Virus record (IMG/VR): IMGVR_UViG_3300048592_000418
Span: 38,005 to 102,004 of that record
DNA length: 64,000 nt
Reading direction: 5' to 3' (one strand)
Source: a virus
In this document: piece after piece, positions 9,702 through 24,023 of the stretch
How positions within the stretch are numbered: the stretch's first letter is position 1
Layout of the letters: every line of letters begins with the position of its first letter
Translations under genes and position numbers: made by a program
Notes under the pieces: model-generated
The model's input: only the letters and a program-made list of their open reading frames with translations
What the model was told of the DNA's origin: nothing
The model's database searches: none

Positions 9702-10182
9702 TCGCTTTCTCGAAATCCACGAAGCGGAGCTGAACGCGAAGACGGCCGCGGAGCTGAAGCGGGACGCATGGGCCGGCGACGCGCTGCTTCGCGCGGCCGT
9801 CACGATTATCGTGATCGCGCTCGAACCGAAGGACGCGCAGCGGCGGAACTGGATCGTTTGCCAAGCCGTGAGCAATGAACACATGGCGATTTGTTGCCGC
9901 TCGTTCATGCCGCGCTCGCCGGCGGGACTGAAGCAGAGCACGGCGTAAAACCGCTATCGCGAAGACGTTCACCGACACGGGACGCGGCTCGAAGCGGCTG
10001 TGCTTTACGAATACCGGCGCCGCGGCGGGGCGGAACACGGCGGCATCACGGCCGCGATTGAGATTGCGCGATTCCTGATCTCGAAGACGTGCTTTGCCCG
10101 GACGAACGAAGCGGTAACTGTCCCGATTGACAACACGGCTTTGGCTGCTCTGACTGCCGTGCATGACGCCGAAACGAGCTGA
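9670..10182 (+). pseudogene. RNase III (Mini-III-like) domain protein interrupted by in-frame TAA at 9946-9948
   Basis: AWAGDALL and AVSNEHMA before the stop; GTRLEAAVLYEY after it in the same frame. Confidence 0.62.
10127..10162 (+). promoter_or_regulatory. Putative promoter of the ParB/methyltransferase cluster
   Basis: TTGACA at 10127; TTGACAACACG shared with the 43167 site; ATG at 10163. Confidence 0.5.
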
Positions 10183-10801
10183 CGGAATTCCAGTCCACTG
10201 CGCGCACTCGAAGCTGGTTGAGATCGGCACGTTAAAGCCGCATCCGAAGAATCCCAACACACATCCCGAGCGGCAAGTGAAGTTGCTCGCGAAGGTGATC
10301 AAGCTGAACGGATGGCGTCGCGCCATCGTCGTGTCAGACCGGAGCGGATACATCGTGAAGGGACACGGCACGCTGATGGCCGCGCAGCTCGCGAAGCTGA
10401 AGGAAGTCCCCGTTGACGTTCAGCACTACGAAGACGACGAAGCGGAGATCCGCGATCTGATCGCCGACAACCGGATCCCGGAATTGTCCTATCGTGAAAA
10501 CCGCAGTGTCGTCGCGCTGCTTCAGCAGCTCGAAGCGAAGGGACAGGACATCGAATCGGCCGGCTACGCGAACGACGAACTTCAGGCATTGATCGCGACG
10601 CTCGAAGCGAACGTGACGGACGGCGCGCAACGCGCGGGCCGGCGCACGCACAACGAAGCGGACACGATGCTAGTTCTCGGACCGTATCGCGTGAAGATCC
10701 CGCGGGCGGATTTCGCGAGCTGGCACGAAAAGATCCGTCAGCAAGTCGGCTTCAAAGCTGAAGACGTTCACGCGGAAATCCGGCGCCGGCTGTCCCTCTG
10801 A
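10163..10801 (+). CDS. ParB/Srx N-terminal-domain protein
   Basis: LKPHPKNPNTH, GW..AIVV, IVKGHG, LIADNR. Confidence 0.85.
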   Translation: MTPKRADGIPVHCAHSKLVEIGTLKPHPKNPNTHPERQVKLLAKVIKLNGWRRAIVVSDRSGYIVKGHGTLMAAQLAKLKEVPVDVQHYEDDEAEIRDLIADNRIPELSYRENRSVVALLQQLEAKGQDIESAGYANDELQALIATLEANVTDGAQRAGRRTHNEADTMLVLGPYRVKIPRADFASWHEKIRQQVGFKAEDVHAEIRRRLSL

Positions 10802-12327
10802 TGAAGCTCGTTCCCGTCAAACTGCTGACGCCGGCGGCATACAATCCGCGCGTCGTTGATCCCGAACGGCTGGCAATGGTCCGGCTGTCGCTGCGGAAGC
10901 TGGGCTGGCTTCTTCCCGTGTTCGCGACGGAGGAAGGCGAGATCCTGAGTGGGCATCAGCGCACGCACGAAGCCGCGGCGCTCGGATACACGCAAGTTCC
11001 CGTTCGGCCGCTCCCACCCATGGCGACGGGGAAGCTGAAGGCGCTGAACATCCTGTTCAATCGTTCCACGAACGACATGGACATTGACGCCGTTCCGGCG
11101 GAGCTGAAGGCGCGCATTTCCGCGGAGGACGTGCGCAAGCTCGCCGCGGCGCTCCCGGATCACCCGATCAGCTCGTTCCCGTGCATGCACGCAAACCGGG
11201 TGGAGATCGGGCCGCTCGTGAAGGCGAACGCCGGCCGCTGGATTCCCTACGCATACACGGTCGCGAAGTCGCTCGCCGCGCAGGGGATCACGATGCCGTT
11301 GATCGTGGGGCCGGATGACGTGGTGATCAACGGCATCGGCCGGTTGCAAATGCTCGCCGAGCGGAAGGAAGAAACGGCGGAAGCGATTTACCTGCGCGCG
11401 GAGCAAGCGGAGTTCGCGCGGCTGATGCTGAACTTCCTTTCGATGGATTTCGACCTGAAGGCGAAATATGCGGATCTTCTGCGTTACGGCAGTTTTCGCC
11501 GGCTGCGGCGGCAGCGCACCGAACTGGGACGCGGCTTCGTCTTCGCGATCACCGGGAACCGGGCCGCGCGTCATTTCGACATCACGGACGCGGCATCGCG
11601 CGAGCGCTGGATCGCCGAGCACGGCCGCAACGTGCTGGACTTCGGCGCCGGACACCTGACGGAAACGAACCTGCTTCGCGCCGTTGGCGTGGAATGCACG
11701 CCGTTCGAGCCGTATCGCGTGAACCCGGACCGGGAGGAAATCGACAAGGCGGAATCGCTGCGCGTCGTCCGCGAATTCCTCGCCGCAGTGGAGAGCAAGC
11801 GCGAGTTCAGCAGCATCTTCATCAGCTCCGTCCTGAACTCCGTTCCGTTCGAGGAAGATCGGCGCGCCATCGTGACGATTCTGCGCGCATGCGCCGGCCG
11901 GCGGACGAAGGTTTACGCCGTCGCCAGCAGCGATCAGCAACGCGGGTTGAAAAACATGGGGAAGAAGTTCCTGAATCAGCGTTCGGAGCAATACGGCTTC
12001 ATGCTCGCGGGTTACGAACCGAACGTGATCGTCGGCGAGCTGGCGACGAAGCCGAAAGCGCAGAAATACCACACGCCGGACGAGTTCCACGCGCTGTTCC
12101 GGACCGGATTCGGCCGCGTGTCCGTGAAGTATGACGGGGAAGGCGGCGCGAACATCAGCGCGATTGCCTGCGACCCGATGCCGTTCCGCTCGAAGGCCGA
12201 TTTCGCGCAGCTCGCCGCGGCGCTGGCGTTCGAGTTTGATCTTCCATACCCGGACGGCTCGCGCATGGGCATGGCGGAGGAAGCGAAGGCGGCGTTCGGC
12301 GAACGGCTGGGGCAGATCATCGCATGA
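10801..12327 (+). CDS. Tandem ParB-N domains fused to a class I SAM-dependent methyltransferase
   Basis: PAAYNPR, ILSGHQR, VINGIGRL; VLDFGAG; SSVLNSVPF. Confidence 0.8.
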   Translation: MKLVPVKLLTPAAYNPRVVDPERLAMVRLSLRKLGWLLPVFATEEGEILSGHQRTHEAAALGYTQVPVRPLPPMATGKLKALNILFNRSTNDMDIDAVPAELKARISAEDVRKLAAALPDHPISSFPCMHANRVEIGPLVKANAGRWIPYAYTVAKSLAAQGITMPLIVGPDDVVINGIGRLQMLAERKEETAEAIYLRAEQAEFARLMLNFLSMDFDLKAKYADLLRYGSFRRLRRQRTELGRGFVFAITGNRAARHFDITDAASRERWIAEHGRNVLDFGAGHLTETNLLRAVGVECTPFEPYRVNPDREEIDKAESLRVVREFLAAVESKREFSSIFISSVLNSVPFEEDRRAIVTILRACAGRRTKVYAVASSDQQRGLKNMGKKFLNQRSEQYGFMLAGYEPNVIVGELATKPKAQKYHTPDEFHALFRTGFGRVSVKYDGEGGANISAIACDPMPFRSKADFAQLAAALAFEFDLPYPDGSRMGMAEEAKAAFGERLGQIIA

Positions 12328-12475
12328 ACACGAGCTTCCGCATTCCCGGATGGAGTTTTCACGTTCCGATCCCAGTGGGAACGCGCGCAAGCGTCTGCAT
12401 CGTCCGCACGAAGAAGCAGAAGCCGAAAATCTATCTGGACGGGAAGCCGGTGAAGGCGCGCGTCCGGCGCACGAC

Positions 12476-12703
12476 ATGACCCCGGCCGCAACGCATTTCT
12501 GGCGATGGAAGACGCGGCTCCCGGAGCGCAAGGGAACCGGCTGCATCATGCTCGCGCGGGGCCGGCTGAATTCATGCCTGATCCAGTTCGTCGCCGACGG
12601 CTGGAAGGTGATCACGTCACGCAATGCCGTTCGCAAAGTCGTCGACACGGACAAGCGAAAACAGAACAACGACTTGCACGCCAAAACATCCGCAAAACTG
12701 TGA
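12476..12703 (+). CDS. Small hypothetical protein
   Basis: ATGA/GTGA overlaps; preceded by short ORF 12324..12479. Confidence 0.55.
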   Translation: MTPAATHFWRWKTRLPERKGTGCIMLARGRLNSCLIQFVADGWKVITSRNAVRKVVDTDKRKQNNDLHAKTSAKL

Positions 12704-13428
12704 ATTCGTCGACACCCGAAGCCGAAACAGGCGTTCCCGCTCCGCGCGGGCGCTGGGAATTCAACACAGCCGTCGCCGAAAAGTTCGACGAACACGTTCG
12801 GAAGAGCGTTCCGGATTACGAGGCGATCCAGTTCACGGCCGCGGCGCTGTGCGATTGGTTCGCACCGGCCGGCGGAACCGTCATGGACTTTGGATGCGCG
12901 ACGGGGCAGACGTTGGGCATGATCGCCGGCACGAATGCCGGGAAATCGCTCCGGCTGGTGGGTTACGATGGCAGCGAAGCCATGATCACGAAGGCGCAGA
13001 ACATGCGCGCGAAGGGCATCACGTGGCAACAGGGCTGGCTTCCCGGCTGTCTCGAAATCGGCCGCGATCAGCCGATCAACTTCGCGCTGTTCCTTTACAC
13101 GCTGCAATTCCTGACGCCGGAGGACAGGGCGCGCACGCTGAAAGCGGCGGCGGACCGGCTGGCGCCGGGCGGCGCTCTGTTCGTGGTGGAAAAGGTCTTC
13201 GGCAGCACGCCAGCGTTCCACGATCTGACGAGTCAGCTATACGCGGAAATGAAGCTGACGAACGGGCTGACGCCGGATGAAGTGCAGGCGAAGGCGCGCA
13301 GCCTGCGCGGCGTGATGCATCCGCTGACCGTGGCGGAGAACGAGGCAGCATTCCGCGCGGCCGGGCTGACCCGGCACGAACTGATTTACCGGCGGCTGTC
13401 GTTCGCCGGATGGATCGTGACGAAATAA
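12700..13428 (+). CDS. cmoA: CmoA-like carboxy-S-adenosylmethionine synthase
   Basis: WEF...VAEKFDEHVRKSVPDY, DFGCATG, YTLQFL, GGALFVVEK, K..NG, SLRGVM track E. coli CmoA over the full length. Confidence 0.82.
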   Translation: MNSSTPEAETGVPAPRGRWEFNTAVAEKFDEHVRKSVPDYEAIQFTAAALCDWFAPAGGTVMDFGCATGQTLGMIAGTNAGKSLRLVGYDGSEAMITKAQNMRAKGITWQQGWLPGCLEIGRDQPINFALFLYTLQFLTPEDRARTLKAAADRLAPGGALFVVEKVFGSTPAFHDLTSQLYAEMKLTNGLTPDEVQAKARSLRGVMHPLTVAENEAAFRAAGLTRHELIYRRLSFAGWIVTK

Positions 13429-14156: not shown

Positions 14157-14852
14157 ATGGCCGAAGAAGCGACAGTAAAACCGCCGATTGAACTGACGGC
14201 CGCGCAGGCGCGCACCGTCCTGAAGGCGAATCGCGCCAACATCCCGAAGCACACGGCCGCGCTGCTGTCCAAGGTCGCGCGGAACAAACCCCTGACGGAC
14301 CGCGAGCGCGGACTGTTGGAAGGCGTTATTGTGAACGCAGAACGGAAACGGCGCGAGGGACAAAACGGGACAAAACGGCGCGCAGGCGCGGACAGAATGG
14401 GCCGGACGGAGCGGGATTTTGCCGTCGCTGTGCGTCGCCGGCGCGTTCTCGAATGCCGGATGCGCATGCTTCCCGTCCGGGACATCGCCGCAGAGCTGGG
14501 AATCGACAAAAAGACCGTCTGCGCGGATCTGAAGGCGCTGGAAAAGGAGTTCGCAGCGTTCGCGCCGACGGAGAACCGGGCGTTGCTCGCACAGCAGATC
14601 GCGCAAATGGACATCCTGATCGGCGAAAACACGGCGATGGCCGCGAAGTTCACGGCGCCGTCGGCGAAGGCGGCGTTCCTGCGCAACGCAGCGCAGGCGA
14701 TGCAGGACAAGACGCGGCTGCTGGAAAACGTCGGCGTGATCAAAGTCGTCCCGAAGGTGATTCACGCGGCCGGGCCGAACGACGGGCCGATCCCCATCGA
14801 AACGACGGCGAAGATCGTGCTTCTGCCGGCGCTGGAAGAAGGGAAGCAGTGA
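14157..14852 (+). CDS. Terminase small subunit (putative)
   Basis: HTH VRDIAAELGIDKKTV; C-terminal GPNDGPI motif typical of TerS. Confidence 0.7.
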   Translation: MAEEATVKPPIELTAAQARTVLKANRANIPKHTAALLSKVARNKPLTDRERGLLEGVIVNAERKRREGQNGTKRRAGADRMGRTERDFAVAVRRRRVLECRMRMLPVRDIAAELGIDKKTVCADLKALEKEFAAFAPTENRALLAQQIAQMDILIGENTAMAAKFTAPSAKAAFLRNAAQAMQDKTRLLENVGVIKVVPKVIHAAGPNDGPIPIETTAKIVLLPALEEGKQ

Positions 14853-15124: not shown

Positions 15125-15303
15125 ACCAAAAACGGTTCAACCCGATGCGGTTTGCCGTTGCATGCGCGGCGCTTGGCGCTTTGCTGGCGCTCGTCTTCTT
15201 CACTTGCTGCGGCGAACGCCTGTGCGCATGGCTGACCGATTGGATCGATCTGCGCATTGATCGCGTTGGCCGATGGCTGAACAACGAACCCAAACGAAAA
15301 TGA
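15121..15303 (+). CDS. Small membrane protein
   Basis: Hydrophobic stretch FAVACAALGALLALVFF. Confidence 0.5.
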   Translation: MNQKRFNPMRFAVACAALGALLALVFFTCCGERLCAWLTDWIDLRIDRVGRWLNNEPKRK

Positions 15304-17045
15304 ACGGAATGCACATCGACACGAGGCGCGAGGGATTTCAGATGACGCGCGAACGCCGGCGCTCGAACGCGGAATGGCCGGCATGGCTGAACGCAGCATG
15401 GAACACCCCGATTGACGAACCGGGCGCGGTTTACCCGGACCCGAATGATCCGGATCGCTCGAACGGGCGCGTTTGCGTCAATGTCCACCCGGACGGCTGT
15501 TCGCGGCAGATAGTCGAATGGAACGAATGGATCATTCGCGAGGCTGACGGCCGGCTGTGGGTGACGGACAGCAGCGATCCGACGATTGCGAACATCGAAA
15601 TCGCGGCCGGTCAGGAGCTGAAGCAAGAGCGGCGCGCATACATCGCCGAGAAATTGCTTCAAACGGCGCCGGAATTGGCCGCTGAACTGGACACGCTCCG
15701 CGCCGAGTTGGCCGAAGCAAAATCGAATTACATCGGCGCATGCCAGACAATCGCGGCGATGCATGCCGCGGCCGTGGGTGGAATTCGGGGACCGAACCGC
15801 GGCGTCGTTGAAGACGTGGCAGACGTTGCCGAGCGGCTTCGCTTGCTCGAACTCTCGCGCACCGATCCCGAAAAAAGTCTCGCCGCGCACGCGATCCAGT
15901 TGAACGCGACGCTGCGCAAGACGCAGGAAGAACTTCAGACCGCGAACGCGCTGCTGGACGGGCTGAAACGGCCGAACCCGGCGGCAATCGATCAAGTCGT
16001 GGAACGGCTTTGGGGGAAGGCTGGCACGAACACGCCGGACACATTCCGGGATGAAGCGCGGCGGATCCTGCGCGAGCACTTCGGCGAGTTCGGCACGAAT
16101 GATCGCGCCGAGCTGGAAAAGCTCCGCGGCTACTATCGCCAGATCGGCGCGACGCTCGGCGATGACGCAGTGATCAGCCGAGTCCGGGCACAGGCGGACA
16201 CGATCAACCGGCTGCGCATGGAGCTTTCCGCGCTCGAAACGCTGAAGACGGACACTGAAGCGCACGCGGACAGGCTGGCGTCTGCGCTCGGATGGCTCGC
16301 GAGCACGTGCGGGACGCAGGTTCCGGCCGTGGTGGACGCGCTGCGAGCGCACGCCATGCGACGCGGCGCCGATTTTCAGGACGCCGGGCCGATCCAGTCG
16401 CCGGCGCTGATTCCCGCGCGAAAGCTCCCGGAGGGAACGGCGTTGCTGTATCCGGGCGTTCATCAGGTTCGCGGCGTTATCTGCGCGCGTGACGTGATCG
16501 TGACGCCGGCGAAGATTCCGGACCGGACGAAGCTCGTGATCTTCGATGGCGTGCTTTTCCACGTCTGGCAGGCGTTCGCGACGGACGCCGGGACTGTGCT
16601 GCTCGCGGCGCCGGATTCTGCCGTGATGGAAACGGACGACGAAGCGGACGCAGCGGAGGCAATGCGGCTCGCGGGAATGGCTGCGACGGATGAACACGTG
16701 ATCGCGCGGCTGCGCGCGTTCCCGCGTCCGCGGCACGTCGGCATTCAGCCGAAGCCGCTCCCGACGCATCCGGTTGACGCGATGAAGGCGATCGGCATTC
16801 CCATGGATCCGGACGTGGAACGCGATCTTCGTGCGCACTGCGACGCACCTGTTGACGTTTCGGCGATGGACGGCGGGCCGAAGCGAATCGGCGACGTGCT
16901 CGAACAGTGCGGCCGGGAACACGCGGAGGCGATGCAGCGGATTGAAATTCAGCGCGCGCAGTTGAACCCGAACCCGCCGGCGGAACTGGCTCGGCAGGCG
17001 ATGGCGAAAGCGCGCGATATAGTCAGCGAAGGGAATCACCCATGA
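15300..17045 (+). CDS. Large multidomain hypothetical protein with coiled coils
   Basis: Long ORF, ATGA-coupled. Confidence 0.75.
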   Translation: MNGMHIDTRREGFQMTRERRRSNAEWPAWLNAAWNTPIDEPGAVYPDPNDPDRSNGRVCVNVHPDGCSRQIVEWNEWIIREADGRLWVTDSSDPTIANIEIAAGQELKQERRAYIAEKLLQTAPELAAELDTLRAELAEAKSNYIGACQTIAAMHAAAVGGIRGPNRGVVEDVADVAERLRLLELSRTDPEKSLAAHAIQLNATLRKTQEELQTANALLDGLKRPNPAAIDQVVERLWGKAGTNTPDTFRDEARRILREHFGEFGTNDRAELEKLRGYYRQIGATLGDDAVISRVRAQADTINRLRMELSALETLKTDTEAHADRLASALGWLASTCGTQVPAVVDALRAHAMRRGADFQDAGPIQSPALIPARKLPEGTALLYPGVHQVRGVICARDVIVTPAKIPDRTKLVIFDGVLFHVWQAFATDAGTVLLAAPDSAVMETDDEADAAEAMRLAGMAATDEHVIARLRAFPRPRHVGIQPKPLPTHPVDAMKAIGIPMDPDVERDLRAHCDAPVDVSAMDGGPKRIGDVLEQCGREHAEAMQRIEIQRAQLNPNPPAELARQAMAKARDIVSEGNHP

Positions 17046-18890: not shown

Positions 18891-19321
18891 GATCGCGCGA
18901 CTGGCGCGAAAAACTCGGCGGCGTTTCCATCGCCTATTTCTGGAACGAGACGTTCGGCTTCGGCGTTCTGACGTGTTGGCCGATCAACTTCGCGCAGTTC
19001 AAAACGATTGCGCGGCACTACGGCGTTGCGCGAGCTGACATCGCCGCACTGGGAACGACGGAGATCCGGAGCGCGCAGTATTTCTTTTTCCCGGAGCGCG
19101 AAACGCACGTGATCGCGTTCTCGAAGCGGGAAGTCGCGGCGCGTGACGTAGGCGTGATCGCGCATGAGTCGTTCCATTGCGTGCGGAATGCGCTGCGGCG
19201 CCGGGGAATCACGACGGACGGCGGCGACGGCGAGGAAGCGCACGCCTACGCGCTCGGATGGCTGACGAACAAGATCACGGACGCACGCGGGATCGTGCGT
19301 TACCGGGATCCGTCCAAGTAG
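18869..19321 (+). CDS. HExxH metallopeptidase-like protein
   Basis: VIAHESFH...EEAHAY. Confidence 0.6.
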   Translation: MPASTFLRSRDWREKLGGVSIAYFWNETFGFGVLTCWPINFAQFKTIARHYGVARADIAALGTTEIRSAQYFFFPERETHVIAFSKREVAARDVGVIAHESFHCVRNALRRRGITTDGGDGEEAHAYALGWLTNKITDARGIVRYRDPSK

Positions 19322-19339
19322 AATCTAATTGGATTCCCG

Positions 19340-19380
19340 AAAAAAGTGCTTGCAAAGGAACCAAACATGGTTCCTAGTGC
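19340..19380 (+). promoter_or_regulatory. Repeated promoter-operator unit, copy A
   Basis: A-tract, TTGCAA 19350, GGAACCAAACATGGTTCC 19357-19374, TAGTGC. Confidence 0.88.
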
Positions 19381-19402
19381 AGTCCACGAAACGAACCCGA
19401 AC

Positions 19403-19993
19403 ATGAAAACATTCCAATTCGTCACTGACATCGCGAAGAACAATTCCGTTGATCCGGAGTTCATCGCGTCCGAACTCGGACACGCCGGGCCGAACGCGGC
19501 AAACGGCGCTTTGCTTGCCGTGCGTCGCGTCTGCGATGGCGGCGAAGTTCGCCGCGTGTTCCAGCTCGGCAACGGCCGCAAGGTTCTCCGGGTAGAGAGC
19601 TACGGCCGCACGATCAGCATTTACGAAAACGCGGAAGACATTCCCGCGGCGCCGCAGACGCTTCCCGTCGGCACGGTGATCGCCGGCTTCACGTATTCGA
19701 CGAGCCGGAAGGATGGACTCCCGACGGCGTTCGCGTCGCGCGACTGCGAAACGTCGTTCAAGATCGAAGACGTGCGCGAGTGGCACGTGTCGCGGGAATA
19801 CGGCAGCGCGATCTATCGGCTCGGCGCGACGCTCGCCGACGGCCGGCTTGTGTTCGTCGTCCGCTCGCAGCTTCCGAATTACATCGCCGATCCGCTCGGC
19901 AAGATCGCGGAAGCCGTGCGGCGGAACACCGTCCGGCACAGCGGCGGAAGCCGTTCGATCCAGTTCTGGCACGGGCCGGCGCTGAAAACCTGA
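19403..19993 (+). CDS. Hypothetical protein (cassette A)
   Basis: ATG after ACGAAACGAACCCGAAC leader. Confidence 0.7.
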   Translation: MKTFQFVTDIAKNNSVDPEFIASELGHAGPNAANGALLAVRRVCDGGEVRRVFQLGNGRKVLRVESYGRTISIYENAEDIPAAPQTLPVGTVIAGFTYSTSRKDGLPTAFASRDCETSFKIEDVREWHVSREYGSAIYRLGATLADGRLVFVVRSQLPNYIADPLGKIAEAVRRNTVRHSGGSRSIQFWHGPALKT

Positions 19994-20803: not shown

Positions 20804-20958
20804 GCGCACGAAGGTTGACAGGCTCGGCATCCGCCGGCGTTCTCTCACGAGACGCCGGCGGCGTCATTTATGCGCGGCGCGCGAACCATACATGACGAAA
20901 TGATCACGAGAACCGAAGCGAACGCGTGCGCGTTCGAGTCATCCGCGCATCCTGTCTG

Positions 20959-22341
20959 ATGGTGGCACATGCGCCAATTTCGACGGAGCCGGTGACGGTC
21001 TGGAAGCCGAACAGCGGTCCGCAATACAAGTTTCTTGCGTGCGCTGCGCGTGAAGTGCTTTACGGCGGAGCCGCCGGCGGCGGGAAAACTGACGGGCTGC
21101 TGATGGGAGCGATCCGCTTCCGCGAGAACCCGAACATGCGGGCAATCGTGTTTCGGAAAACGTTCCCGATGCTGTCAAAGATCATCGACAGATCGAAGGC
21201 GCTTTATCCGCACCTCGGCGCGCGTTACAACGAATCGAAGCACGTCTGGCGCTTCCCGGCCGGCGGATTCGTGCGCTTCGGCAATCTCGACAAACCCGGC
21301 GCGGAAGAGAACTACCAAGGCGAAGACTTCACTTACATCGCGTTTGACGAGCTGACGCAGTGGGCAACGGCGAAGCAATACACGTATCTGCGATCACGTC
21401 TGCGTTCGAGCGCGGGAAGCGGGATCTCGCACCTGATGATTCGCGGCGCGTGCAATCCCGGCGGGCGCGGGCATGGGTGGGTGAAGTTGCACTTCGGGAT
21501 CGATGACGCCGGCAACGCGGCCGATTTCATTGACACCGGCACGCCGGATCAGCCGGGAACCGGATTCCGTCGCGTGTTCATCCCCGCTCGGCTGCGCGAC
21601 AATCCGTTTTTGTCCGGCACGGATTACGAGCGCGAGCTGATGGCGCTCCCGCACGATCTGCGCGTCGCGCTGTTAGATGGCCGCTGGGATGTCGTCGCCG
21701 GCGCCGTGTTCGGGCATCACTGGAACCCGCGGCTTTGGGATGACAAAGACACGCCGGGCAACGTCTGCGACGCGTTCGAGATTCCGCAGCACTGGAAGAT
21801 CTGGCGCGGAGCTGACGACGGCTTCAATGCGCCGGCGTGCTGTCTATGGTTCGCGCAGAACGATGATCGGATCTTCGTGGTGGATGAACTTTACCGGGAA
21901 GGCATGTCCCCGGAAGCATTCGCGGAAGAAGTCCTGAAGCGGGACAATCAGCTTCGGGCCGGCGGCAGGATCACGGGCGTCATTGATCCGGGCGCGTTCG
22001 CAAAGACGGGCATCACGCACAAGCAAGGGCAGTCCCGCGGGCAAATCATGAACGCGTGCGGCTGTCACTGGGAGGAAGCCGAGAAAGGGCCGCATTCGCG
22101 CGTGAATGACGTTTCGCTTGTCGCAACGTCGCTCTCGAAGGTTTTACCGGACGGCCGGCGGAAAGTGATCGTGTTCCGGCGCTGCAAAAACCTGATCCGA
22201 ACGATTCCGGTTCTCCCGCGTGACGACGTGAACCCGGAAGACGTGGACAGCGATTCGGAAGATCACGCTTATGACGCTTTTCGTTACGGGTTGCAATGGC
22301 GCCGGCGGGAGATCAAACAGGGGAAGCTCTCCGGTCTGTAA
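20959..22341 (+). CDS. terL: Terminase large subunit
   Basis: YGGAAGGGKT Walker A, FDELTQ Walker B, CNPGG, EDHAYDAFRY. Confidence 0.96.
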   Translation: MVAHAPISTEPVTVWKPNSGPQYKFLACAAREVLYGGAAGGGKTDGLLMGAIRFRENPNMRAIVFRKTFPMLSKIIDRSKALYPHLGARYNESKHVWRFPAGGFVRFGNLDKPGAEENYQGEDFTYIAFDELTQWATAKQYTYLRSRLRSSAGSGISHLMIRGACNPGGRGHGWVKLHFGIDDAGNAADFIDTGTPDQPGTGFRRVFIPARLRDNPFLSGTDYERELMALPHDLRVALLDGRWDVVAGAVFGHHWNPRLWDDKDTPGNVCDAFEIPQHWKIWRGADDGFNAPACCLWFAQNDDRIFVVDELYREGMSPEAFAEEVLKRDNQLRAGGRITGVIDPGAFAKTGITHKQGQSRGQIMNACGCHWEEAEKGPHSRVNDVSLVATSLSKVLPDGRRKVIVFRRCKNLIRTIPVLPRDDVNPEDVDSDSEDHAYDAFRYGLQWRRREIKQGKLSGL

Positions 22342-22355
22342 ACCGCTTCCCGAAA

Positions 22356-24023
22356 ATGCCTGTTTCAACCTTTCATCCGCTATACATGAAGGCCGTTCCG
22401 AAGTGGGAACGGATTCGCACGGTTCTCGAAGGCGAAGACAAAGTGAAGGAAGCCGGCGACAAGTATTTGCCGCGGCTGTCCGCGCAGACTGATGACGAAT
22501 ACAACGCTTACAAAATGCGCGCGCAGTTCTTCAATGCGACCGGGCGCACGCATGGCGGTTTGCTGGGGCTGATTTTCGGACAGGATCCGAACGTGATCGT
22601 CCCGAAGGACATCGAAGAATGGCTGGACGACGTGACGCTGACGGGGATGACGTTCTTCGGATTCTCGAAGCACGTCACCGATCAGATTCTCGGACCCGGC
22701 CGCTTCGGGATCTACGTGGATTTTGATCAGGACGCCGGCCGGTCATACTTGGTCGGATACACGACGGAACAGATCATCAACTGGCGCACGGAGCGGCGGA
22801 AGGGGAAGCAGTTCGTGACGATGGTCGTTCTGAAGGAATCCGTCGAATCGGTTCAGGCGGATCCGTTCGTCGCCGAAGTTCAGGAACGTTATCGCGTGCT
22901 TTTGCTCGAACCCGCGGACGGCGGGAACGGCAAGCCGATCTTCAAAGTGCGGCTGTATCAGAAGCGGCCGAACGCGGCGCCGGGGAAGGAATCGCCGACG
23001 AAGCGGGCGCGCACAGCTCGAACGGCGCGACTCGGCAACGATGACGAGCTGATGAAGGAAGCCGCGGCGGCGGCGAAAAAGCCGTCAGAAGTTCCGACGG
23101 AAGGCGACTTCGAGATCACGGAGATCGTCCCGGTGATCCGCGGAACACCGCTCGAATTTATTCCGTTCACGTTCGTCGGCGTGACGCGCAACGAAGCGGA
23201 TCCGGAGCGTCCACCCTTGGAAGACGTGGCAACGGTGAACCTGTCCCACTATCGGACGAGCGCGGATCTCGAACACGGCCGGCACTTCACCGGACTGCCG
23301 ACGGCATGGGTTGCGGGATTTGACACGGACGAAGAGCTTCGGATCGGCAGCGGCACGGCATGGATCAGCAAGGATGCGAGCGCGAAGGCCGGCTTTCTCG
23401 AATTCACCGGGCAAGGGCTGAAGGCGCTCGAAGTCGCGCTGGAACAGAAAGAGAAGCAAATGGCCGTTCTCGGCGCGCGCTTGCTCGAACAGCAGAAGAA
23501 GGAAGCCGAGACGGCCGAAACGCTGAAGCTGCGGCAGGCTGGCGAATCGTCCGTGCTCGCGTCCATCGCAACGACGGTAGGCGAAGCGCTGACAATGGCG
23601 CTGCGGTTTCTCGACTACTGGCGCACGGGCGGCGCGCTCGAAACCGATCCGCAGAAGATCAGCGCGGAAATGAACACCGAATTCATTGACGCGTCGCTGA
23701 CTTCGCAGGAAGTCACCGCGCTCGTTTCGGCGTGGCAGGGCAAAGCGATCTCGCATCTCACCTTGCTTCACAATTTCGCGCGCACCGGAATTCTCCCGCC
23801 GGACATTTCGCCGGAAGACGAGCAAGCTCGGATCGATGACGAAGCTCCGTCGCTTACCGGCGACGCGTTGCCGCTGGATCCCGATGACGGCACTGTTCCG
23901 GCGACGCAGCGCGACGCGCAGACGGCCGCGGCGAAGAAAAAGGCCGCGGACGAAGAAAACGAACGCATGATGCGCGAAAAGGAAATGCAGATGAAGGCGA
24001 AGCCGGGCGCATTCAAAAAGTAG
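22356..24023 (+). CDS. Portal protein (DUF4055-type)
   Basis: YLPRL...Y..RAQFFNAT, IPFTF, HYRTSAD; position after TerL. Confidence 0.9.
   Translation: MPVSTFHPLYMKAVPKWERIRTVLEGEDKVKEAGDKYLPRLSAQTDDEYNAYKMRAQFFNATGRTHGGLLGLIFGQDPNVIVPKDIEEWLDDVTLTGMTFFGFSKHVTDQILGPGRFGIYVDFDQDAGRSYLVGYTTEQIINWRTERRKGKQFVTMVVLKESVESVQADPFVAEVQERYRVLLLEPADGGNGKPIFKVRLYQKRPNAAPGKESPTKRARTARTARLGNDDELMKEAAAAAKKPSEVPTEGDFEITEIVPVIRGTPLEFIPFTFVGVTRNEADPERPPLEDVATVNLSHYRTSADLEHGRHFTGLPTAWVAGFDTDEELRIGSGTAWISKDASAKAGFLEFTGQGLKALEVALEQKEKQMAVLGARLLEQQKKEAETAETLKLRQAGESSVLASIATTVGEALTMALRFLDYWRTGGALETDPQKISAEMNTEFIDASLTSQEVTALVSAWQGKAISHLTLLHNFARTGILPPDISPEDEQARIDDEAPSLTGDALPLDPDDGTVPATQRDAQTAAAKKKAADEENERMMREKEMQMKAKPGAFKK

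Follow-up and report, generated by a model that had tools for sequence, protein, structure and literature searches.

In the literature that we searched, 5-carboxymethylcytosine is the only natural DNA modification described as dependent on carboxy-S-adenosylmethionine (carboxy-SAM, or Cx-SAM), and it is made by the CmoA–CmoX(–CmoY) system of Synechococcus phage S-B43 (Yang et al. 2025, PMC12783734). CmoA paralogues pair with transferases that are unrelated to one another, namely CmoB, TglF, MccB's C-terminal domain and CmoX (PMC10491745, PMC12783734). ParB-domain proteins occur, unexplained, in many phage CmoA contigs, and the discoverers of CmoX, who found no carboxymethyltransferase of N6 or N4 type associated with phage CmoA, proposed that enzymes of this sort would have to be made by engineering (PMC12783734). 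Here we analyse a stretch of 64,000 nucleotides of viral DNA (the window; bases 38005–102004 of IMG/VR record IMGVR_UViG_3300048592_000418), in which a CmoA homologue is encoded in one run with a methyltransferase fused to two ParB-type domains, the ParB-ParB-methyltransferase. We favour, with modest confidence, the reading that these two proteins form a carboxymethylation module in which Cx-SAM made by the CmoA homologue is used by the ParB-ParB-methyltransferase, probably on phage DNA. It offers a concrete, naturally occurring candidate for a second carboxymethyl chemistry. Our literature searches returned nothing on this module or on N6-, N4- or other non-C5 carboxymethyl bases in phage DNA.

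The complete virus record is 102,004 bp in length and has direct terminal repeats. The module consists of five genes on the + strand at 10163–13428 of the window, and every stop codon overlaps the next start in an arrangement of translational coupling (TGATG at 10799–10803, ATGA at 12324, ATGA at 12476 and GTGA at 12700):

10163–10801, + strand: stand-alone ParB-N-like protein, 212 amino acids (aa), first gene of the module (phrog_620, E 7e-31; Pfam ParB_N, E 2.8e-4, below cut-off)
10801–12327, + strand: ParB-ParB-methyltransferase, 508 aa, the proposed Cx-SAM-dependent transferase (phrog_5475 over the full length, E 1.9e-98)
11554–12324, + strand: class-I methyltransferase domain of the 508-aa fusion (Pfam Methyltransf_23, 24.7 bits)
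12324–12479, + strand: small open reading frame (ORF), 51 aa, with ATGA coupling at both ends (G+C content at third codon positions, GC3, 0.78)
12476–12703, + strand: small ORF, 75 aa, with ATGA and GTGA couplings (GC3 0.79)
12700–13428, + strand: CmoA-family protein, 242 aa, proposed carboxy-SAM synthase (TIGR00740, phrog_4752, PDB 4gek/1im8)

An earlier interpretation of this DNA, made from its letters alone (the sequence-only reading), had described a ParB-N protein, a ParB-ParB-methyltransferase and a CmoA homologue in a coupled run, and all three are indeed present on the + strand in that order.

The module resembles four described systems in part. As in the S-B43-type CmoX system, a phage CmoA-family synthase lies beside a gene of methyltransferase fold, ParB-domain proteins are present and CmoB is lacking; the stand-alone ParBs of the two systems are homologous and their CmoA clades are interleaved. 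In contrast to CmoX, the window transferase is not a PF00145 protein, has neither an SPPC/PC motif nor a conserved Cys, and has a ParB-ParB-class-I architecture. The hallmarks of CmoX (the PF00145 fold, the catalytic Cys of SPPC and the carboxylate-binding R350) were not found in it, and PF00145 has no match genome-wide. The window genome also lacks an Asn-synthase-type ligase, and the two transferases never occur together in the loci examined. Compared with the E. coli CmoA/CmoB pathway to cmo5U34 in tRNA, the window CmoA aligns throughout and keeps the family motifs, whereas the phage has no CmoB homologue or tRNA gene and Arg199 is not at the same column; the features that mark CmoB and TglF (a PF08003-type domain, Lys91, Tyr200 and Arg315) were not found in the ParB-methyltransferase. 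In the microcin C system of Bacillus amyloliquefaciens, MccB's C-terminal domain carries out a Cx-SAM-specific carboxymethylation of a cytidylate (PMC10491745). MccS/MccB and the window module both combine a CmoA paralogue with a class-I methyltransferase that is unrelated to CmoB and fused to a nucleotide-handling domain, but MccB is fused to an adenylating/cytidylating enzyme rather than to ParB and acts on a peptide-nucleotide. Finally, ParB-N-fused phage DNA methyltransferases (phrog_498, ParBc + N6_N4_Mtase) resemble it in having ParB-N of the GH(H/Q)R type, fused at the N terminus of a SAM-fold enzyme, and in lying near packaging genes; unlike them, the window protein has a catalytic domain that is not PF01555, no DPPY/NPPY motif and a second ParB-like repeat.

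The CmoA homologue and its partners across phages

CmoA is the best full-length match of the protein encoded at 12700–13428 in NCBIfam, PHROGs and the PDB. The match to TIGR00740 runs nearly end to end (E 2.8e-29, 102.5 bits, model positions 13–238 of 239), the protein matches phrog_4752 (E 6e-54) and the solved structures 1im8 and 4gek (E about 5e-19), and E. coli CmoA aligns end to end at 27–28% identity (E about 1e-19 to 1e-21), so that its description as a full-length homologue stands. The score is below the equivalog cut-off of 193.3 bits that NCBIfam sets for TIGR00740 (also family NF011995), as is that of the biochemically verified phage SpCmoA, which reaches a similar 115.6 bits. Because a verified enzyme falls short of it, the cut-off marks orthologues of the tRNA pathway and not activity. 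The gene is shorter than the ORF first reported, which started at 12505. Homology begins near residue 78 of that long ORF (12505–13428) and the collection's own gene call has 242 aa. We rejected the N-terminal extension at 12505–12699 (65 codons) as non-coding (GC3 0.45, compared with 0.80 in the gene) and place the start at the GTG at 12700.

The window CmoA keeps the motifs of the family, KSVPDY (SVPxY), LYTLQFL (TLQF) and VVEKV (EK), as well as the invariant Lys198. In E. coli CmoA, Arg199 alone contacts the carboxylate of Cx-SAM (PMC4482062). The aligned segment reads K-R-S-M-L-E-N in E. coli, K-E-K-E-L-R-D in SpCmoA and K-A-R-S-L-R-G in the window protein. SpCmoA has no Arg at the 199 column and carries one at the column of E. 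coli Glu203, one helical turn on; it and the window CmoA both have a basic residue two positions past the invariant Lys, and at the E203 column both have Arg. The sequence-only reading had cautioned that the Arg may be shifted by one residue in the segment KARSL. This caveat loses much of its force, as SpCmoA also lacks Arg at the 199 column and has it at that of E203. Given the full-length homology, the SpCmoA-like score, the motifs and the placement of Arg, we take the window CmoA to be a credible Cx-SAM synthase.

Relatives of the ParB-methyltransferase are encoded on 358 IMG/VR stretches, from which we fetched 80 loci, 79 of them with downstream room. A CmoA-family gene lies directly downstream on the same strand in 78 of these 79, and the arrangement recurs in every metagenome locus with room (20/20), counts that take in near-duplicate contigs, some metagenome contigs being identical to IMG/VR ones. 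The order ParB, ParB-methyltransferase, CmoA is also found in Gordonia phage Evaa, in Pseudomonas phage SM1 together with about a dozen close relatives, and in Aeromonas phage HJ05; the hosts of these cultured phages (Gordonia terrae, Pseudomonas aeruginosa and Aeromonas hydrophila) belong to two phyla.

We also examined loci centred on window-type CmoA, using a narrower alignment after a first, CmoA-wide alignment proved too divergent. Among the 40 assessable loci (at least 2.5 kb upstream and at least 1.5 kb downstream), the partner is a ParB-methyltransferase in 34 and a CmoX homologue in 6; no locus has both and none has neither. Two of the six CmoX loci also carry a CmoY-like ligase. A tree of 63 CmoA homologues interleaves the two kinds of partner, with at least six changes, of which well-supported branches force three to four. 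The CmoA of Evaa, whose partner is the ParB-methyltransferase, and that of Streptomyces phage TurkishDelight are sisters (100% support); the TurkishDelight module comprises ParB, ParB, CmoX (PF00145; 37% identity to SpCmoX), an amidotransferase-ligase and CmoA. This interleaving indicates that methyltransferase-linked CmoAs are not a separate functional clade. The accessory proteins are related as well: the window stand-alone ParB (212 aa) is homologous to Evaa gp1, which has 38–42% identity to the ParB proteins of the TurkishDelight module.

On the basis of the near-obligate synteny with CmoA, the either/or relation with CmoX and the interleaved tree, it is very probable that carboxy-SAM has an alternative consumer in the ParB-methyltransferase. 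The simplest reading of these comparisons would be that it and CmoX are alternative users of one cofactor in otherwise similar modules. A functional link between the ParB-methyltransferase and CmoA had been proposed from the window itself, with a survey of co-occurrence as its check, and both the adjacency and the mutual exclusivity with CmoX bear it out.

Methyltransferase-linked CmoAs fall into several subtypes: one with the E. coli-like KR..LE pattern (type B), one that resembles the window protein and one that is very divergent (type C). Type C (L011:3408–4091 and about 35 similar loci) was found only beside ParB-methyltransferases in the loci examined. It has the motif HVREQLPWYDL, LMF in place of LQF and DK in place of EK, and neither column 199 nor column 203 holds an Arg; its TIGR00740 score is 52 bits, with a match confined to the N-terminal two-thirds, and its stem branch has 3.4 changes per column. 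The type C clade may make another product.

Most modules contain a further gene. Every one of the 80 IMG/VR loci has, between the ParB-methyltransferase and CmoA, a HAD-like ORF of about 135 aa with the motifs DLNxT, TARP and ESNP; so does Evaa, where it is annotated 'phosphatase' (gp4):

L010–L089 (for example, L013:4151–4561) and L002:2633–3115 (− strand): HAD-like ORF with conserved motifs, matching phrog_32036

The protein has no match in Pfam or in a PDB profile search and matches a PHROG polynucleotide kinase family weakly (E 0.0094). The gene is absent from the window genome, SM1, HJ05 and loci L168 and L170. We considered a degenerate copy in the window genome and rejected it, as the hidden Markov model finds nothing genome-wide even at E 10.

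The ParB-ParB-methyltransferase

The 508-aa protein matches phrog_5475, an uncharacterised family, from residue 2 to 504 (profile positions 4–457 of 458). Its relatives form at least 755 protein clusters, typically with about 50% identity across the whole length; the fetched metagenome relatives have at most 60% identity and the nearest relatives known have 74%. An AlphaFold2 model of the full protein has a pLDDT of 89.9. Residues of about 1–95 form a ParB-N domain that PHROG ParB families match at E 1e-24. In the model, residues 1–92 superpose on CTP- or CDP-bound ParB and Noc (Z about 11, root-mean-square deviation (rmsd) 1.8–1.9), among them M. xanthus ParB with CDP (VIA Z 11.1, rmsd 1.8 over 90 residues), and the motif SGHQR stands at the position of GERR in ParB (GxxR-type). 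Internal-repeat BLAST hits, together with a weak match in PHROGs, indicate a second, degenerate ParB-like repeat at residues of about 130–215 (NGIGRLQ), and a basic linker (RYxSFRR...LGRGF) follows it.

The class-I methyltransferase domain begins at about residue 255, and its only Pfam match is the sub-threshold one to Methyltransf_23. It has DFGAGH as motif I, an acidic residue past strand 2 in FEPY, and a strand 4 (SIFIS) that leads into SVLNSVPF (SSVLNSVPF..DR), with no PP-aromatic motif there; FEFDLPYPDGS is a family-specific segment at its C terminus. By conservation alone, the invariant basic residues H285, R354, K419, K422 and H424 are candidates for a place near the cofactor site. The strings VLDFGAG and SSVLNSVPF, which had been reported before, both occur in the protein. 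When a model of the domain alone (pLDDT 87.9) was compared with all representatives, the matches formed a plateau at Z 12.7–9.4, the best being 3sm3 (VIA Z 12.7), Trm9 (12.0), GSMT/GNMT (11.8) and METTL6 (11.4). With the full-length model, Foldseek and VIA-align returned CcbJ, ToxA and GSMT/GNMT, which are generic class-I enzymes that act on small molecules or RNA. The tRNA m3C enzyme METTL6 was considered as a clue to the target because it reached Z 13.2 against about 11 for other matches of the full-length model, and was set aside because its 11.4 lies within the domain-only plateau. No DNA amino- or C5-methyltransferase is among the top 50 structural matches, a distant relation being still possible.

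Methylation at pyrimidine C5 requires covalent-Cys chemistry. The methyltransferase domain has no PC motif, and no Cys is invariant in the family alignment, which argues against such chemistry. The absence of PF00145 agrees with these results, and the statement of the sequence-only reading that the fusion is not a C5 enzyme holds. Its further proposal of an amino-type transferase, giving for example N6-carboxymethyl-A or N4-carboxymethyl-C, finds no support in sequence or structure: there is no (D/N/S)PP(Y/F/W) motif following strand 4, the nearest structures are generic class-I enzymes, and PF01555 has no match in the genome, Pfam returning only Methyltransf_23 for the domain (PF02086 and PF02384 were not searched separately).

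The methyltransferase domain is confined to the ParB-ParB-methyltransferase architecture. A domain-only profile found 542 representatives among 1.84 billion, nearly all of about 500 aa with the domain at the C terminus, and we therefore dropped other fusions as a source of information, the search having returned almost only this architecture. Kinship of the domain with CmoB or CmoA was likewise rejected, since hhalign aligns motif I alone (for CmoB, 14 columns, probability 35%).

Searches of the complete genome with PF00145, PF01555, PF00733 and tRNA gene models were negative, and tblastn with SpCmoX, SpCmoY, TurkishDelight gp123, E. coli CmoB and other ligase or methylase queries found nothing in it. 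The reported lack of CmoB, tRNA genes and C5 methyltransferases in the window thus extends to the whole genome, and a C5 carboxymethyltransferase elsewhere, which had been named as a possible real partner of CmoA, was found neither with PF00145 nor by tblastn with CmoX.

Proposed pathway and rival explanations

In the pathway that we propose, the CmoA-family protein (12700–13428) would turn SAM and host prephenate into carboxy-SAM, in the manner of E. coli CmoA and SpCmoA. The ParB-ParB-methyltransferase (10801–12327) would, judging from gene linkage, take carboxy-SAM instead of SAM and pass the carboxymethyl group on, not to cytosine C5 but to another nucleophile, probably an N (ring or exocyclic) or an O of a phage DNA base, after replication. 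Genomic context suggests that the two ParB-type domains, with the stand-alone ParB (10163–10801), would bring the transferase to DNA, and the packaged DNA would be shielded from host restriction or other DNA-sensing defences. In this scheme the ParB-methyltransferase would stand in for CmoX, the C5 enzyme that other phages have, either alone or together with the amide ligase CmoY.

We infer DNA as the acceptor from three features: the fusion to ParB domains, a ParB accessory protein in common with the CmoX modules, and the site of the module ahead of the packaging genes, of which two have clear matches:

20926–22341: large terminase (TerL)
22296–24023: portal

A Pfam scan of 42 further proteins found helicases, an ERF recombinase, a DnaA-like ATPase, a GIY-YIG endonuclease, a GNAT protein and others. 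The lack of a thymidylate-synthase-like enzyme or nucleotide kinase among them argues against modification at the nucleotide level, and this negative evidence fits modification of the polymer after replication. More broadly, we tentatively propose that phrog_5475 is a natural DNA carboxymethyltransferase acting on a base N or O (for example, N6-A, N4-C, N3-C or N7-G) to give an undescribed modification, and that this holds for hundreds of phages, with Proteobacteria, Actinobacteria and Verrucomicrobia-like bacteria among their hosts.

Several observations weigh against the proposed pathway, and we considered three rival explanations. The methyltransferase domain is like small-molecule and RNA methyltransferases, tRNA enzymes included, and unlike any DNA methyltransferase; ParB-N folds bind CTP, as the match to CTP- and CDP-bound ParB illustrates, so that a nucleotide could be the substrate; and the HAD-like gene of most modules could signal a phosphorylated or nucleotide substrate. 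These points would suit the use of Cx-SAM on an acceptor other than DNA, that is, a nucleotide in the ParB/Srx-type domain (CTP or dCTP), RNA or protein, with the HAD-like phosphatase processing a phosphorylated product, and the cytidylate substrate of the MccB C-terminal domain is a precedent. We regard this explanation as possible but unlikely. Fusion to ParB-N is typical of DNA methyltransferases from phages, and ParBs accompany CmoX too (PMC12783734), the ParB-methyltransferase replaces CmoX in otherwise similar modules, the HAD-like gene is missing from the window genome and the four other modules named above, and the genome has no tRNA genes, with no nucleotide kinases among the proteins scanned.

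No carboxylate-binding residue was identified in the ParB-methyltransferase, the domain has standard SAM-binding motifs, and one of the 79 assessable IMG/VR loci (L030) keeps the ParB-methyltransferase without a CmoA gene. The enzyme might therefore be an ordinary SAM-dependent methyltransferase, with CmoA acting alone for example to supply host CmoB in the making of tRNA cmo5U or to drain SAM and so weaken host defences that depend on it; SAM depletion has been raised as a possible side role of phage CmoA (Yang et al., PMC12783734). This seems improbable to us in view of the same-strand adjacency in 78/79 and 20/20 loci and the translational coupling of the window genes. Moreover, each assessable CmoA locus has exactly one of the ParB-methyltransferase and CmoX, and independent roles would not predict such exclusivity. 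Least probable, and to our minds very much so, is that the CmoA homologue makes another SAM derivative or is itself a methyltransferase, so that a different group is installed. The window CmoA does have Ala at the exact E. coli Arg199 column, with Arg at +1, and the type C sub-clade is very divergent; however, Arg is placed alike in the window protein and the verified SpCmoA, the type B methyltransferase-linked CmoAs keep the exact E. coli KR..LE pattern, and the tree puts the window clade next to CmoX-linked CmoAs.

If the two-enzyme carboxymethylation module operates as proposed, it would add a new base modification to the anti-restriction repertoire of phages, give a function to the large phrog_5475 family, help to explain why ParB domains are fused to modification enzymes and provide a new enzyme with which to place a carboxylate handle on DNA. 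The cofactor logic would be that of CmoA–CmoX; the transferase family is new, and the target atom probably is as well. The module is common, with at least 358 contigs in IMG/VR and 542 representative clusters (50% identity), and its presence in the cultured phages SM1, Evaa and HJ05 makes it open to testing. Literature searches returned nothing on DNA modification in Samunavirus, Evaa or HJ05.

Other genes of the module and its relatives

The 51-aa and 75-aa ORFs look coding by codon-position GC, and have no match in the family libraries and no homologue in any fetched locus. They sit (12324–12703) where most related modules have the HAD-like gene. In some loci, a second HAD-like paralogue lies about 2.5 kb upstream of the ParB-methyltransferase (L067:7445–7909 and L083:6826–7329, and also L110, L117, L119, L121 and L185). 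At L030 (1832–6135), the ParB-methyltransferase and HAD-like gene are followed by a large-terminase-like ORF of 625 aa in place of CmoA, and this module may draw on host Cx-SAM.

Alcaligenes phage Afa-NA1 (L006) and Erwinia phage Y3 (L008) have a CmoA gene with neither CmoX nor a ParB-methyltransferase in the fetched flanks. An Asn-synthase gene adjoins CmoA in Y3, with a 'DNA methyltransferase' 5 kb off, and Afa-NA1 has a 'DNA adenine methylase' 2.5 kb off. Partner types of CmoA beyond CmoX and the ParB-methyltransferase may exist.

Downstream of the module in the window, the gene at 14157–14852, which the sequence-only reading had called the small terminase subunit (TerS), has weak helix-turn-helix matches only, and a 590-aa ORF at 15273–17045 has no match. 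The claim that the module is close to TerS is borne out in part: TerL and the portal have clear matches, and this large terminase lies 6 kb beyond the gene at 14157–14852. Outside the window, about 29 kb upstream of the module, the genome encodes a GNAT-family acetyltransferase at 19284–19742 (L166; PF00583, E 6e-11); Mom of phage Mu has an acetyltransferase-type fold (PMC7261163).

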